In this document: piece by piece, positions 1,405-64,000 of the stretch
Layout: each line of letters starts with the position of its first letter
Position numbering within the stretch: the first letter of the stretch is position 1
Assembly (NCBI GenBank): GCA_015478775.1
Contig: JADMKP010000008.1
Coordinates: 184,076 to 248,075, forward strand
Direction of reading: 5' to 3'
Source of the DNA: Fermentimonas sp.
Lineage (GTDB): Bacteria > Bacteroidota > Bacteroidia > Bacteroidales > Dysgonomonadaceae
Length of the DNA: 64,000 bases
The notes under the pieces: generated by a model
What the model was told of the DNA's origin: nothing
The model's database searches: none
What the model saw: only the letters and a program-made list of their open reading frames with translations
Position numbers and translations under genes: made by a program

Positions 1405-2451
1405 ATGGCTTATACAGCAAAACAAATAGCTGATTTCCTACACGGAGAAGTGATAGGCAATCCGGATGTCACAGTTTCTAGTTTCTCAAAGATTGAAGAG
1501 GGTAAACCAAATACTCTAACCTTTTTAGCAAATCCAAAATACACATCATATATCTATGAGACGGAATCAGATATAGTGCTTGTGAACAGAGATTTTGTTC
1601 AGGATAAGCCTATAAAGGCAACTCTTGTAAAAGTTGATAATGCTTATGCTGCATTAGGTGCTTTAATGGAAATGGTAAATCAAAGTATTCCCAAAAAAAA
1701 TGGTGTAGAAGGGATGAGTTTTGTTTCATCTTTGGCTACAATTGGTAAAGATGTTTACATTGGGTCCTTTGCTTATATTGCAGATAATGTAATTATTGAG
1801 GATAATAGTAAGATTTATCCGAACTCCTATATTGGTGATAATGTAAAGATTGGTAAGAATACAATCATTTTTCCCGGTGTTAAAATTTATCACGACTCAA
1901 TTATTGGAAGTAACGTAATTATACACTCAGGTGCAGTTATAGGAGCAGATGGCTTTGGATTCAGTAGAAATGGCAATGTTTATAATAAAATTCCTCAGCT
2001 GGGCAATGTCATTATTGAGGATGATGTAGAAATTGGAGCTAACACCACTATCGACAGGTCTGTAATGGGTTCTACAATAATACATAAAGGGGTTAAACTC
2101 GACAATTTAATACAAATTGCTCATAATTGTGAAATTGGCGAGAATACAGCTATGGCCGCTCAAGTGGGAATTGCTGGTTCTACAAAAATAGAAGAGAACT
2201 GTGTCTTAGGTGGACAGGTAGGTATTGGTGGACATATAACAATAGGTAAAAACAGCCAGATTGGTGCACAGTCGGGTATTATAAGTAATATAAAAGAAGG
2301 GTCTGAACTGTTAGGATCTCCTGCATACCCAGTTAAGAATTTCTTCAAATCTAGTATCATTATTCCCAAACTTCCTGATATATACAGGCAAATAAATGTA
2401 ATGGAGAAAGAACTTGCCGAATTAAAAAGGAAAATGGAAACTACTGATTGA
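1405..2451 (+). CDS. lpxD: UDP-3-O-(3-hydroxyacyl)glucosamine N-acyltransferase
   Basis: N-terminal LTFLANPKY, hexapeptide repeats, [11 protein letters not shown] and [11 protein letters not shown] motifs. Confidence 0.97.
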
Positions 2452-57922: not shown

Positions 57923-58010
57923 GGAGAGGTGCTCGAGTGGTTGAAGAGGCACGCCTGGAAAGCGTGTATACGCCAAAAGTGTATCGCGGGTTCGAATCCC
58001 GCTCTCTCCG
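57923..58010 (+). tRNA. tRNA-Ser, anticodon GGA
   Basis: GGAGAGG acceptor, CACGC-CTGGAAA-GCGTG anticodon arm, long variable arm, GTTCGAATCC; CCA not encoded. Confidence 0.97.
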
Positions 58011-58116
58011 CTCAAAATAGAAGTCGTATAAGGTTTATATAGAAGAATTGATAAATCAAAATCATTAATAAAACAAACAAATTAAAAGATCATTAATCAA
58101 CAAAATTGAACACACA

Positions 58117-58902
58117 ATGAAAAAGTTATTCGCAATTTTAGCAATCTTCGGAATGATGTCTGTAGGATTGTCTTCGGTTCTTTTCGCACAAGAAACAACC
58201 CCTGGAGATCAAACAGAACAAGTTGCCACTACTCAAGCAGCTGTTCAGGAGTCTTCTGCTGGCTTTCACCAAGCATTGAAGGTTAAATTTATAGAAGGTG
58301 GTGCCGGTTTTATGAGTCTCATCGCTATATGTTTAATCTTAGGATTAGCTTTTAGTCTTGAAAGAATTATCTATCTAAGTTTGGCTGATGTAGATCCAGA
58401 CGCATTCCTAAATAAAGTTGGTGATGCTTTAAATAGAGGTGATGTAGAAGCAGCAAAAGATATTGCTCGCGATACAAGAGGACCTATAGCATCTATTGTT
58501 TATCAGGGTCTATTACGACTAGATAATGGTGCTGATGAGGTTGAACGTTCTATCGTTTCTTACGGTGGCGTACAATCGGGACTCCTAGAAAGAAACCTTT
58601 CATGGATTACACTTTTTATTGCTATTGCACCATCTCTTGGTTTCTTGGGAACAGTAATAGGTATGGTTAAGGCTTTTGATGATATTGCTAGAGCAGGTGA
58701 TATGAGCCCTACAATTGTTGCTGGTGGTATGAAGATTGCTTTAATTACTACTGTAGGTGGTTTGATTGTTGCAATTATTCTTCAGATTATCTATAACTAT
58801 ATTCTTTCGAAAATGGAAGGTATCCTTAATAAAATGGAAGATGCTTCTATCACTTTCCTTGATCAAGTAATCAAATATAACGTAAAATATAAAAACTTGT
58901 AA
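58117..58902 (+). CDS. exbB: MotA/TolQ/ExbB proton channel
   Basis: APSLGFLGTVIGM, GMKIALITTVGGL, three TMs plus a signal-like N-terminus. Confidence 0.94.
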   Translation: MKKLFAILAIFGMMSVGLSSVLFAQETTPGDQTEQVATTQAAVQESSAGFHQALKVKFIEGGAGFMSLIAICLILGLAFSLERIIYLSLADVDPDAFLNKVGDALNRGDVEAAKDIARDTRGPIASIVYQGLLRLDNGADEVERSIVSYGGVQSGLLERNLSWITLFIAIAPSLGFLGTVIGMVKAFDDIARAGDMSPTIVAGGMKIALITTVGGLIVAIILQIIYNYILSKMEGILNKMEDASITFLDQVIKYNVKYKNL

Positions 58903-58906
58903 TAAG

Positions 58907-59386
58907 ATGGCTGTAACTAAAATACACAGGACATCCAGAACAACATTAATCATAGGGGTTATTATCTCTATAATTGTATTGGCTCTCTTTTTCTTTGGCG
59001 GTCAGGTGGCCGATCATGAAAAAGTTGCTGCTGATATGTCTGAGCCTAAATTTACAGATTTAATATTGTACTGGAGTTATATACTTCTAGTTGTAACTGT
59101 TGTTATTTTAATAGCATTTGCAATTATTGACTTCGCAAGGGGATTAAAAGAGAATCCTAAGAAAGCAATGAGCGGTTTCCTAGCAATTCTTGCATTAGGT
59201 GCTCTGTTGGTAGTAACTTATATTATGGGTGATGGTACTTTATTAAACATACCCGGGTATGAGGGAACTGATAATGTGCCAGGAATGTTGAAACTGACCG
59301 ATATGTGGCTGTATTCATGCTATTTCATGATGATAGTAACAGTATTGGCTCTTATTTTTTCGCCTTTGATGGCTAGAAGAAAATAA
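58907..59386 (+). CDS. Hypothetical 4-TM membrane protein in the exbBD operon
   Basis: Four hydrophobic segments; 4 nt after exbB. Confidence 0.8.
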   Translation: MAVTKIHRTSRTTLIIGVIISIIVLALFFFGGQVADHEKVAADMSEPKFTDLILYWSYILLVVTVVILIAFAIIDFARGLKENPKKAMSGFLAILALGALLVVTYIMGDGTLLNIPGYEGTDNVPGMLKLTDMWLYSCYFMMIVTVLALIFSPLMARRK

Positions 59387-59451
59387 ACTTGTCTAGGTTT
59401 AAATATTGACGATTCTCTATGAGAATTTTTTAAAAGAAAGGTTTATAATTT

Positions 59452-60081
59452 ATGGCAAAAACTACAAAAAAGGTTCCAGCTCTGAATGCTAGTTCAATGG
59501 CTGATATTTCTTTCCTGTTGCTTACATTCTTCTTGCTGGTATCAAATATGGATGTTGATTCTGGATTGGCTAGACGCCTTCCTCCTCCTCCACAGTCAGA
59601 TGATCAGACATCTGTTGATGTTCAGCGTAGGAATTTGCTAGTGGTGTTGGTAAATGCACAGAACGAAATTCTGTTACAAGACCAACAAGGTGTTATTGTA
59701 TACGCTAATGAAGATGATTTGATGGGTGGTGCTGGTCGTGCTGCAATGAAAGATGTTGTTAAGGGTTTTGTTCTTAATGAATCTAACAGCCAAGACTTGC
59801 CACAGCTTATTGAGGAAGACTTTGGTCCCCCTATTGGAATAGTGCCCGTTACATCTAACCATGTTGTTTCTATTCAAAATGATGCTACAACTAGGTACAG
59901 TGCTTATATTGCTGTTCAGAATGAAGTCGTAAAAGCATATAATGAGTTGAGACAAGAAGGAGCAAGAAGATATTTTGGAACTGCATATGAAGAACTGACA
60001 GTAGAGCAGAAAAGTCAGATTGATACACTTTATCCACAACGTATCTCTGAGGCTGAACCTAAAAATTATGGAGATCAATAA
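59452..60081 (+). CDS. exbD: ExbD/TolR-family protein
   Basis: SSMADISFLLLTFF TM with the essential Asp; QRISEAEP C-terminus. Confidence 0.92.
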   Translation: MAKTTKKVPALNASSMADISFLLLTFFLLVSNMDVDSGLARRLPPPPQSDDQTSVDVQRRNLLVVLVNAQNEILLQDQQGVIVYANEDDLMGGAGRAAMKDVVKGFVLNESNSQDLPQLIEEDFGPPIGIVPVTSNHVVSIQNDATTRYSAYIAVQNEVVKAYNELRQEGARRYFGTAYEELTVEQKSQIDTLYPQRISEAEPKNYGDQ

Positions 60082-60083
60082 TT

Positions 60084-60542
60084 ATGGGAAAATTTAATAA
60101 AAGCGGCAAAAAAGATATGCCCGAAATGAATACATCTTCAATGCCTGATATTGTATTCGCTATTCTGTTTTTCTTTATGGTTACAACTACTATGCGCTCA
60201 GAAACTCTGTTGGTGCAGATGAAGTTGCCCTCCGCAACTGAAGTTCAGAAACTAGAGAAAAAGTCATTGGTTACTTATATTAATATTGGAGTTCCTATGG
60301 ACAACAGATTAGGTACAGGTACCCAGATGCAGCTGAATGATAGATTCGCACAAGTTGCTGATATACAAAACTATATCGCGCAAGAAAAAGCTAGTATGAA
60401 TGAAGCTGATCAACCCTTAATGACTGTATCTATAAAGGCAGATGAAAATACGCGTATGCAATATATTACTGAAGTAAAACAAGCATTGCGTCAAGCTTAT
60501 GCATTAAAAATTAGTTATTCTGCAAGAAAATCTGAAAACTAA
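60084..60542 (+). CDS. exbD: Second ExbD/TolR-family protein
   Basis: SSMPDIVFAILFFF, LPSAT, IKADE. Confidence 0.92.
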   Translation: MGKFNKSGKKDMPEMNTSSMPDIVFAILFFFMVTTTMRSETLLVQMKLPSATEVQKLEKKSLVTYINIGVPMDNRLGTGTQMQLNDRFAQVADIQNYIAQEKASMNEADQPLMTVSIKADENTRMQYITEVKQALRQAYALKISYSARKSEN

Positions 60543-60566
60543 TATTTTTTATTGTATCTAAATAAT

Positions 60567-60599
60567 ACCGGAGGTCTATAGAGACTTCCGGTTTTTTTT
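60567..60599 (+). terminator. Terminator of the exbBD operon
   Basis: accggaggtct / agacttccggt followed by T8. Confidence 0.88.
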
Positions 60600-60822
60600 A
60601 GAGTTTCTGGTTTAAAGTATAAGTTTATACAAGCATATCAATTTAATTTATAATAGAAAGATAAACAAATTTCCCTATTTAATGTTTTACTCTTAATTAT
60701 TGGGATGTTTAAATAATGTATGAGCAATAAATTGCTTGATAATTTAACTATAACTGTTTAATTTCAGATATTATTAAGCTACAATATTTAACTTAAGAAA
60801 GAGAATAAATGAAATTTATATA

Positions 60823-61239
60823 ATGAAAAGAAAAAACGATTTATTACAACTAGGGTGGCTAATATTAAGATTTGGAATTGGTATATCAATTTTCCTACAT
60901 GGTCTTCCTAAAATTATGGGTGGAGCTGAGACATGGACTATGGTAGGTAGTACTATGTCTAACTTCGGTATATATTCAGGACATACATTCTGGGGTTTGC
61001 TTGCTGCATTTGCCGAAACAGTTGGAGGAATTCTATTTGCTTTGGGATTGATCTTCAGACCGGCTGCTTTAATGCTTACTGGAACTATGGTTGTTGCTCT
61101 AATAACTCACCTTTCTGCAGGTGATAGTTTTATGGTATATGGTCATGCATTAGACCTTTTAATAGTTTTTGCGGGATCAGTGTTTATAGGAGCAGGAAAA
61201 TACTCAATAGATAATAAATTATTCCCTAAAATTGCTTAA
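60823..61239 (+). CDS. DoxX-family membrane protein
   Basis: LILRFGIG..HGLPK, AETVGGILFALG. Confidence 0.88.
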   Translation: MKRKNDLLQLGWLILRFGIGISIFLHGLPKIMGGAETWTMVGSTMSNFGIYSGHTFWGLLAAFAETVGGILFALGLIFRPAALMLTGTMVVALITHLSAGDSFMVYGHALDLLIVFAGSVFIGAGKYSIDNKLFPKIA

Positions 61240-61310
61240 TTAAGATATAAGCTAAGATTACATACTTCAGATTTAAATTAAGTTTACCAAACTGAGTAAA
61301 GGTAAATAAA

Positions 61311-61360
61311 AAAACCCCCCTTTTCTACGACTAAAATGCGTAAGAATGGGGGGTTGTTTT
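61311..61360. terminator. Long hairpin between convergent doxX and ffs
   Basis: aacccccc / ggggggtt outer stem with inner ttc/gaa and tacg/cgta pairs. Confidence 0.7.
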
Positions 61361-61375
61361 TATTAAATAAAAAAA

Positions 61376-61471
61376 GGGTAAGCTTACTATATCGCGCCGC
61401 TACAACCAAATACCCTTGCTTCGATCAAGACCTGGGGGATTAAATGGGAGCTGGCCGTATAGGACTTACCC
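61376..61471 (-). ncRNA. ffs: Signal recognition particle RNA (small bacterial type)
   Basis: 96-nt rod closed by GGGUAAG/CUUACCC; symmetric-loop CAGG...AGCA; own promoter; T-run immediately downstream. Confidence 0.88.
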
Positions 61472-61476
61472 AACTG

Positions 61477-61506
61477 CAAAGATAGTGTTTTTTTTAAATA
61501 TACAAA
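61477..61506 (-). promoter_or_regulatory. Promoter of ffs
   Basis: Minus strand TTTG-N18-TATCTTTG ending 5 nt before the RNA 5' end. Confidence 0.75.
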
Positions 61507-61606
61507 AGGGTAAATTGATTTTTACTATTCAACTCAAATATTTATCTTTGTAAAACCAATGTAGCTTTAACTTTGAAAATGCATTTAAATCAAAAAAAGT
61601 ATAAAC

Positions 61607-62833
61607 ATGACAATTGTAGATCGTTTTATTAAATATGTTCGTATTGATACTCAGTCAGATGAGAATAATACACAGACTCCCAGTACTCAGAAGCAATTTA
61701 ATTTAGCCAAAGAGGTCGAAAGAGAGGCTCTTGAAATGGGATTATCAGATGTTAGTTTAGATAACAATTGTTATTTGATGGCAACTCTCCCTTCTAATAC
61801 AAATAAGATGAATGTACCTGTAATTGGTTTTATATCACATTTTGATACAAGCCCTGATATGAGTGGGAAAAATGTTAATCCAACTATAATTAAAAATTAC
61901 GGTGGTGAGGACATTGTTCTTAATGAAGCAAATAATGTAGTACTATCTCCTAAGGATTTTTCTGAATTGTTGAAATTCAAAGGTGATGACATAATTGTTA
62001 CAGATGGGACAACACTATTGGGAGCAGACGATAAGGCAGGTATTGCTGAGATAATGGATGCAATGCAATATCTTATCGATCATCCTGAAATTGAGCATGG
62101 AAAAATAAGAATAGCCTTCACACCGGATGAAGAAATAGGTAGGGGTGCTGATAAATTCGATGTTAAGAAATTTGGGGCTGATTGGGCATATACAATAGAT
62201 GGTAGCGAGATTGGTGAACTTGAATATGAAAACTTTAATGCTGCATATGCTAAAATTGAAATCCAGGGAAGAAATGTGCACCCGGGCTATGCAAAGAATA
62301 AAATGATTAATGCACTTCATATTGCAAATGAACTTTCATCGATGCTACCACAAGAAGAGCGTCCTGAAAAAACTCAAGGATACGAAGGTTTTTTCCATCT
62401 TATTTCTTTAAATGGCACTGTTGAAGACTCTAAAATGTCATACATTATAAGAGATCATGATAGAGTGAAATTTGAAGAACGCAAAAATACATTAAGCAAA
62501 ATTGTTGAAGAACTCAATAACAGATACAATAATCGTATCACTCTTGAAATGAAAGATCAGTATTTTAATATGAGAGAGAAAATTGAGCCTGTTATGCATA
62601 TTGTAGATTATGCGCACCGTGCAATGGAAGAACTTGGTATTAAGCCTATTGTTAAGCCAATACGTGGTGGAACTGATGGCTCTAAGTTATCTTTCATGGG
62701 ATTACCTTGTCCAAATATTTTTGCAGGAGGTATGAACTTTCATGGTAAATATGAGTTTCTGCCTATACCAGCATTAGAAAAAGCTTCTAAGGTTATTGTA
62801 AAAATAGCCGAATTAGTAGCCAAAGAAAATTAA
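61607..62833 (+). CDS. pepT: Peptidase T (M20B)
   Basis: [39 protein letters not shown]. Confidence 0.96.
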
Positions 62834-62862
62834 CACGTCATTATTATAATTATCAATTCAAA

Positions 62863-63948
62863 ATGAAACAGACTCCATTTACAGAACTCCATATATCTCT
62901 AGATGCAAAAATGCACGAGTTTGCTGGTTATAATATGCCAATTGAGTATACAGGTATAATTGAAGAACACCAAACTGTAGTTAATGGTGTGGGTGTATTT
63001 GATGTATCTCATATGGGAGAGTTTTGGGTAAAAGGGCCAAAAGCATTAGAGTATCTTCAAAAGATAACAAGTAATGATGTTACTAAGCTTCAGCTAGGCA
63101 AAGCGCAGTATACGTGTTTTTTAAATGAGAATGGTGGAATAGTAGACGATTTTATCCTTTACTATTACGAATCCGAAAAGTATTTGCTGGTTGTAAATGC
63201 TGCTAATATTGATAAAGATTGGCAGTGGTGTAAGAAATGGAACACAGAGGGTGCTATACTTGAAAATGCTTCTGATAATATGGCACAACTTGCGGTGCAA
63301 GGCCCCAAGGCTGTTGAAACACTACAGAAACTCACGAAGGTTGATCTTTCCACAATTCCATCATATGAATTTGTAACAGGGCAATTTGCCGGAGTGGATA
63401 ATGTGATTATTTCGCATACAGGATATACTGGTGCTGGTGGTTTTGAGCTCTATTTTTATCCTTCAGAAGGACTTAAAATATGGGAAGCTGTTTTTGAAGC
63501 CGGAGAAGAGTTTGGGATAAAACCTATTGGACTGGGTGCAAGAGATACCTTGAGACTTGAAATGGGTTATTGTTTATATGGCCATGAACTTGATGATGTG
63601 ACCACTCCATTAGAAGCAGGTTTAGGATGGATTACTAAATTTGCAGAGAATAAGCCATTTATCGGTAGAGATGTATTAGAAAAACTAAAATCAGAAGGCG
63701 TTTCAAAGAAATTATGCTGCTTTGAATTAATTGATCGAGGTATTCCTCGTCAAGGCTACGAAATTGTAAATCTTAACAACGAAGTCATAGGAAAAGTAAC
63801 TTCAGGAACAATGTCTCCAATGCTTAAGAAAGGTATCGGTATGGGCTATATTAAAACAGAGTATGCTAAACAAGGAAATGAAATTGCTATAAAAATAAGA
63901 AACAAATCACTAAAAGCTGAAATAGTGAAAGCACCTTTCAGAAAATAA
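62863..63948 (+). CDS. gcvT: Glycine cleavage system aminomethyltransferase T
   Basis: [38 protein letters not shown]. Confidence 0.97.
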
Positions 63949-64000
63949 ATTGTGAAGAAGGCAAAGATAGCTAAGAATATCTTTTTTATTCTCGGTGCGA

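Follow-up and report, generated by a model that had tools for sequence, protein, structure and literature searches.

The SRP RNA encoded in a 64,000-nucleotide stretch of Fermentimonas sp. DNA (hereafter the window; assembly GCA_015478775.1, contig JADMKP010000008.1, positions 184,076 to 248,075 of the forward strand) carries at its helix-8 tip a lineage-typical, catalogued and already published loop variant, and the tip is in this sense already known. Our evidence makes it very likely that the gene is an ordinary, functional, single-copy ffs, in which a tip of the known URRC/URRU class, replacing GGAA in this lineage, is best read as a UGAY tetraloop that stacks on a U·C juxtaposition. An earlier note on this DNA, made from the letters alone, had described an SRP RNA lacking the GNRA tetraloop in helix 8; the letters and coordinates proved to be as it gave them, with the gene on the minus strand, and the sequence allows both of its readings of the tip, a UGAU loop above a U·C mismatch and a UUGAUC hexaloop. 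The tip had been regarded there as a variant not known from Bacteroidota, which the surveys described below did not bear out.

Identity, copy number and anatomy of ffs

An Rfam scan of window positions 58000-64000 gave one match only, to RF04183 (Bacteroidales_small_SRP), at 61478-61372 on the minus strand with 119.6 bits and an E value of 9.3e-26. The match covers model positions 1-107 of 107 and exceeds the gathering score of 55.2 bits, membership of the family being defined as a score at or above the gathering score over the full model, and the full model span (61372..61478, minus strand) was taken as ffs, the small (4.5S-type) SRP RNA. A search of the whole genome (2.90 Mb in 13 contigs, 99.64% complete) with RF04183 returned this same single match. 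RF00169 (Bacteria_small_SRP, threshold 40 bits), which the earlier note had recommended for the check, gave zero matches at E <= 0.001 across the whole genome, and the check succeeded instead with RF04183. B. thetaiotaomicron is likewise absent among the RF00169 control matches. The blank is due to divergence of the RNA from the E. coli type, not to absence of an SRP RNA, and RF00169 by itself overlooks Bacteroidales-type SRP RNA genes. RF04183 was added in Rfam 15 and shares clan CL00003 with RF00169; its reference is the B. thetaiotaomicron transcriptome map of Ryan et al. 2020, in the main text of which SRP RNA is not discussed.

The mature RNA is probably the hairpin at 61376..61471 on the minus strand, which has GGGUAAG/CUUACCC as its basal helix and is exactly the span singled out by the earlier note, with its ends placed from the promoter position and the U-run; its single-sequence minimum free energy (MFE) fold in ViennaRNA has -33.7 kcal/mol and a z score of -2.05. 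The helix-8 core, CCAGG-N10-AGCAAGGG, encloses the tip at 61413..61435 (minus strand; exact pattern match at G000:C8:245488-245510, minus strand), and by analogy with E. coli the core strands of the symmetric loop would bind the Ffh M domain. The 10-nt tip UCUUGAUCGA runs from 61430 to 61421 on the minus strand, inside CCAGG-UCU-UGAU-CGA-AGCAAGGG (61435 down to 61413), and can be parsed as UC-U-UGAU-C-GA, with a U-A and a C-G Watson-Crick pair below a U·C juxtaposition and UGAU as the loop on top.

Upstream of the hairpin, the octamer TATCTTTG at 61477..61484 (minus strand) fits TAnnTTTG, the Bacteroides -7 promoter consensus, and may act as the ffs promoter box. Of 125 related ffs loci, 85 have a TAnnTTTG box beginning 5-7 nt ahead of Rfam model position 1, and the position of the box implies that transcription likely starts at or just before the basal helix. 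A possible -33 element, TTTG at 61503..61506 (minus strand), was read by eye 18 nt farther upstream than the -7 box and is weak taken alone. On the other side, a U7 run directly after the basal helix (61369..61375, minus strand) is the likely intrinsic stop of ffs, and a CCCCCC...GGGGGG hairpin at 61315..61353, flanked by T-runs on both strands and located from the sequence and the ORF list, is probably a bidirectional terminator shared by ffs and the upstream plus-strand ORF at 60823-61239. The conserved box upstream and the U7 run after the helix may mark the two ends of a stable transcript. A scan for sigma-70 promoters and consensus terminators around ffs called nothing, in the former case because the promoters of Bacteroidota depart from the sigma-70 consensus, and in the latter because the ffs hairpin is too long and the loop of the 61315-61353 hairpin, at more than 8 nt, falls outside the scan rule. 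Contigs from RNA libraries (X16) match 61358-61398 and then diverge into unlike sequence, and probably come from relatives.

A 408-aa ORF at 61607-62833 on the plus strand is divergent from ffs, with 129 nt between its start and the ffs promoter region; its N-terminus presumably resembles that of peptidase T. In several Bacteroidales relatives (L002, L003 and L011, at 1426-1607, minus strand) ffs abuts tRNA-Thr(UGU) with no spacer, an arrangement that suggests a single transcript cut by RNase P. A tRNA is absent after ffs in the window (61300-61478), in Proteiniphilum (L095) and in Petrimonas (L149), where the U7 run and the terminator hairpin are found instead.

Distribution of the UGAY tip

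The consensus tip of RF04183 is cuuGAucG, lying between CCAGGg and cAGCAAgGG, and the window sequence CUUGAUCG agrees with it letter for letter. Ten of 12 congeneric genomes match the core pattern and all ten carry UCU-UGAY-CGA, giving 5 UGAU and 6 UGAC tips when the window genome is included, in keeping with the suggestion of a lineage-level change. By identity of the SRP RNA itself, the nearest named relatives are Proteiniphilum (97% to a MAG) and Petrimonas (95% to a MAG), both of Dysgonomonadaceae.

To place these tips within the order, a sample of 151 Bacteroidales genomes, mostly one per GTDB family, was used, of which 141 have an RF04183 match and 124 fit CCAGG-N10-AGCAAGGG and could be classified by loop. 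Twenty-nine of the 124 have UGAY (20 UGAC and 9 UGAU, as NNY-UGAY-NNN), 94 have GNRA (92 GGAA, one GAGA and one GUGA) and one has UGAA; four further genomes missed by the pattern add three UGAY and one GGAA. GGAA is thus the majority state in Bacteroidales, and UGAY is the tip in roughly a quarter of the families sampled. All 19 classified genomes from other orders of the same class have a GNRA tip; these 19 are the informative part of the phylum-level survey, in which most genomes outside the class misfit the CCAGG-N10-AGCAAGG frame.

A scan of GTDB species representatives for CCAGGNNTTGAYCNNAGCAAGG gave at least 120 matches. Among the matches listed, at least 96 are Bacteroidales, at least 11 Cytophagales, at least two Sphingobacteriales and at least one Marinilabiliales (NCBI names); the Bacteroidales among them include Porphyromonas, Parabacteroides distasonis, Dysgonomonas, Proteiniphilum, Petrimonas and Tannerella, as well as Paludibacter, Prevotellaceae, Muribaculaceae, Bacteroides and Azobacteroides. 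The matches listed in Spirosoma, Arcicella and Breznakibacter are true SRP RNAs by Rfam, as is that in L093, an 'uncultured Cytophagales bacterium' placed in Sphingobacteriales. Two matches in Leisingera were rejected as chance occurrences after an Rfam check, since they are not SRP RNA. With the tip present as the RF04183 consensus, in about one in four sampled Bacteroidales families and in the published record (PMC4091067), the view that it is new or rare in Bacteroidota falls, and the circumstance that the earlier note itself had named as speaking against its proposal, a variant already common in the family, is what the congeners and the Bacteroidales survey display. The SRP RNA of the window is a textbook housekeeping gene in its lineage-standard form and of little discovery value, and non-GNRA SRP tips in Bacteroidota need no flag as anomalies.

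Some RF04183 matches fall in unexpected places. Full-length matches occur in contigs labelled Eubacterium sp. CAG:180 (L070, 109.2 bits), uncultured Bifidobacterium MAG (L085, 84.9 bits) and Thiomargarita (L130, 98.1 bits), all three of which are probably Bacteroidota DNA that was mis-binned or wrongly labelled. Two genomes of the order sample have two full-length matches each on different contigs, namely G044 (C15:775-882 and C20:298-405, both near contig ends) and G092 (C7:48677-48783 and C44:8166-8272), which could reflect a genuine duplication, a mixture of strains or a gene split in assembly.

Accuracy of the tip bases and standing of the gene

Two readings would make the tip of the window irrelevant to SRP function. 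The one, that a sequencing or assembly error at 61421-61430 converted a GGAA tip into UGAU, is ruled out by independent contigs together with the congeners. Logan contigs from independent public runs were compared with the window, and a 5889-nt contig of X13 across 61355-61700 and a contig of X9 across 61200-61465 each have 0 differences, as do, at the tip, the pieces of X7 across 61376-61441 and 61412-61471; apart from A>C at 61442 in X7, no variant is listed. The base check that had been proposed for these ten positions therefore came out base for base in agreement across independent runs and studies, the ten matched congeners have the same UCU-UGAY-CGA, and the passage from C-GGAA-G to U-UGAU-C requires four separate base changes. 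The other reading, in which the window ffs is a degenerate or secondary copy and SRP function falls to a canonical GGAA copy at another locus, deserves practically no credence either. The search for a second canonical copy, also proposed by the earlier note, is settled by the one RF04183 match and zero RF00169 matches in this nearly complete genome, and both the intact Ffh-binding core and the promoter box conserved among relatives speak against a degenerate copy.

Structure of the tip

The short stem that carries the loop is seen in the variation among 138 relatives. The outer tip pair covaries (G-C in 83, U-A in 47, C-G in 6 and A-U in 2) and the second pair is C-G in 126, U·G in 10 and U-A in 2. 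The consensus structure line of RF04183 annotates basal helices only and leaves 56 central positions, including the whole of helix 8, unpaired despite this covariation. At the third position, directly beneath UGAY, the 29 UGAY genomes of the order sample have U·C in 22, C·C in 4, U·G in 2 and U-A in 1. The C·C cases (G086, G109, G129 and G134) have a C-UGAC-C tip. In the genomes with a U·G flank (G085 and G048) or a U-A flank (G029), the flanking bases can pair, so that UGAY is a properly closed tetraloop there. U·G-closed GGAA tips also occur in the order sample, for example UCU-GGAA-GGA. Across GGAA and UGAY tips, G-A at loop positions 2-3 is invariant; what varies is the closing pair and, in the loop, the first and fourth bases. 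A GNRA loop is defined by G at position 1, A at position 4 and a standard closing pair, and U-G-A-U on a U·C juxtaposition in the window falls outside this definition.

The ViennaRNA MFE fold reproduces the rod-like shape of the RNA but not the expected tip, where it pairs C49-U50-U51 with G56-A57-A58 and leaves the five bases GAUCG as the loop. This differs from the reading we prefer, but the drawn tip is implausible, the method carries little weight for non-canonical motifs, and the choice between tetraloop and hexaloop is beyond a single-sequence fold. A solved structural precedent is the phage phi21 boxB hexaloop CUAACC, in which a C-C pair flanks a GNRA-like motif of the UMAC type (PMC12550061, with reference to Zhao et al. 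2012). By analogy with it, the tip of the window probably has a GNRA-like fold, in which the UGAY tetraloop would stack on the pyrimidine-pyrimidine (U·C) juxtaposition above two Watson-Crick pairs and would keep the central G-A of GGAA and a GNRA-like shape. In the established model the apical loop contacts FtsY Lys399 electrostatically, stabilises the early complex and speeds assembly about 100-fold (PMC4091067, PMC4737761). The UGAY tip would probably dock FtsY in the usual way, and Ffh-FtsY kinetics with a UGAU tip would then be expected to be unchanged. Two further points tell against this picture, in that UGAU ends in U, outside the strict UNAC/UMAC pattern, and the RNA as a whole has diverged from the E. 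coli type, as its failure to match RF00169 indicates.

FtsY and Ffh

The protein partners are encoded close to the window, FtsY at G000:C8:180169-180999 on the plus strand, about 3.1-3.9 kb before window position 1, and Ffh at C8:250512-251306 on the minus strand, 2.4 kb past the window end. In a TIGR00064 search FtsY scored 366.7 bits and Ffh was the second match, and both genes are intact (319 and 442 aa). FtsY of the window genome, at about 319 aa, consists essentially of the NG domain and a short N-terminal segment without the long acidic A domain, which is present in E. coli FtsY (498 aa as translated, stop included). FtsY open frames measure about 316-350 aa in most relatives, which suggests that a short FtsY is the norm in the order.

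The NG domains of FtsY from 29 UGAY and 36 GNRA Bacteroidales genomes were aligned, with the numbering of Lys399 checked on MG1655 FtsY, where it is the second K of ...MEELKKIV.... The equivalent residue is Lys in all 29 UGAY and all 36 GNRA genomes (65/65), and the window FtsY reads ...MNELTKIK... at this site. W343, Q354, S362, F/Y365, D366, V403 and K406 form the RNA-recognition patch of FtsY (PMC6059433), and these residues are equally conserved in the two classes. A column-by-column comparison across the 65 genomes identified no FtsY column that separates UGAY from GNRA cleanly. Of the compensating changes in FtsY/Ffh that the earlier note had suggested, one at the known FtsY contact site is thus unsupported by the aligned sequences.

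Alternative readings of the tip

It might still be argued that GNRA was lost in this lineage and that either FtsY or Ffh changed to make up for the loss or the lineage tolerates a slower assembly of SRP with its receptor. Genomes of like loop type do group together on the FtsY tree (9 changes, compared with 21.5 in shuffles, where 9 is an upper-end guess from a quick, single-gene tree with few supported branches and 2 changes are forced by supported branches), one large clade holding about 21 UGAY families with the window genome inside, and a few FtsY columns do differ in frequency, the one most associated with loop type being E. coli V473 (mutual information 0.48). Against this stand the identity of the Lys399 equivalent and the RNA-contact residues in both loop classes and the want of a cleanly separating column; the columns that do show an association fall elsewhere than in the contact patch and resemble clade signatures. 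A comparison of phylogenetically independent pairs offered 2 contrasts on well-supported branches, and hence no power. In addition, named Bacteroides, Prevotellaceae, Parabacteroides and Porphyromonas are carriers among the matches listed, which would speak against a costly defect. Taken together, we regard compensation or slower assembly as improbable.

Somewhat better placed, while still unlikely, is the reading of UUGAYC as a true six-base loop with a shape unlike GNRA that docks FtsY differently. A standard U·C pair is impossible, and the flanking U and C are strongly conserved (in 22 of the 29 UGAY genomes of the order sample), so that they could be read as bases instead of being stacked. 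However, the same two positions pair as U·G or U-A beneath UGAY in the three genomes named above, the four C·C genomes resemble the solved C-C-flanked UMAC loop with its GNRA-like fold, and a different mode of docking fits poorly with an FtsY contact patch that is unchanged. The UGAY tetraloop on a U·C juxtaposition thus remains the preferred reading.

A wider suggestion, towards which we lean slightly less than away, is that Bacteroidota swapped GGAA for UGAY on a pyrimidine-pyrimidine closure several times independently while the FtsY contact patch stayed constant. U·G-closed GGAA tips, followed by U·G-closed UGAY tips, are possible intermediates of such an exchange. If the exchange was repeated, the tether would respond to how the tip is shaped and charged, not to its sequence, and Y-UGAY-C would be a natural GNRA mimic, structurally uncharacterised so far in SRP RNA. 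The occurrence of two loop types with an unchanged FtsY patch across Bacteroidales families provides a natural series for the sequence specificity of the tether.

Comparison with known systems

E. coli 4.5S RNA (RF00169) and the window RNA share the domain IV layout, with CAGG and AGCA strands ten bases apart and a short tip stem, and have in common a four-base loop with central G-A; Ffh and FtsY are present, and FtsY Lys399 is kept. They differ at the tip, UCU-UGAU-CGA in the window against UCC-GGAA-GGA in E. coli, in which the closing C-G becomes U·C.

UMAC/UNAC GNRA-like loops, which are characterised by a U-turn with positions 2 to 4 stacked and exemplified by phi21 boxB CUAACC, are suggestive parallels, as they too set a pyrimidine-N-A-pyrimidine loop on a pyrimidine-pyrimidine pair, and as a sequence analogy the layout of phi21 boxB is the same as C-UGAC-C of four Bacteroidales families. 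Loop position 2 is A or C in UMAC and G in the window, and the window loop ends in U, not C.

Within SRP RNA, URRC is described in PMC4091067 (2013, citing Rosenblad et al. 2009) as a widespread alternative apical loop, and the same paper reports a URRU tetraloop for over 10 Bacteroidetes and Firmicutes. The class has U-purine-purine-pyrimidine at the helix-8 tip, and both the UGAU of the window and the UGAC/UGAU of its congeners conform to it: window UGAU corresponds to URRU and congener UGAC to URRC, in a phylum that the paper names (Bacteroidetes). The paper gives no closing pair for these loops, whereas in the Bacteroidales sample it is mostly U·C (22/29) or C·C (4/29). The closest match of all is RF04183, with which the window RNA shares its length, basal helix, CCAGG/AGCAAGGG core and cuuGAucG tip; the one difference at the stem, an outer tip pair of U-A in place of the consensus G-C, is compensated and is found in 47 of the 138 relatives as well.
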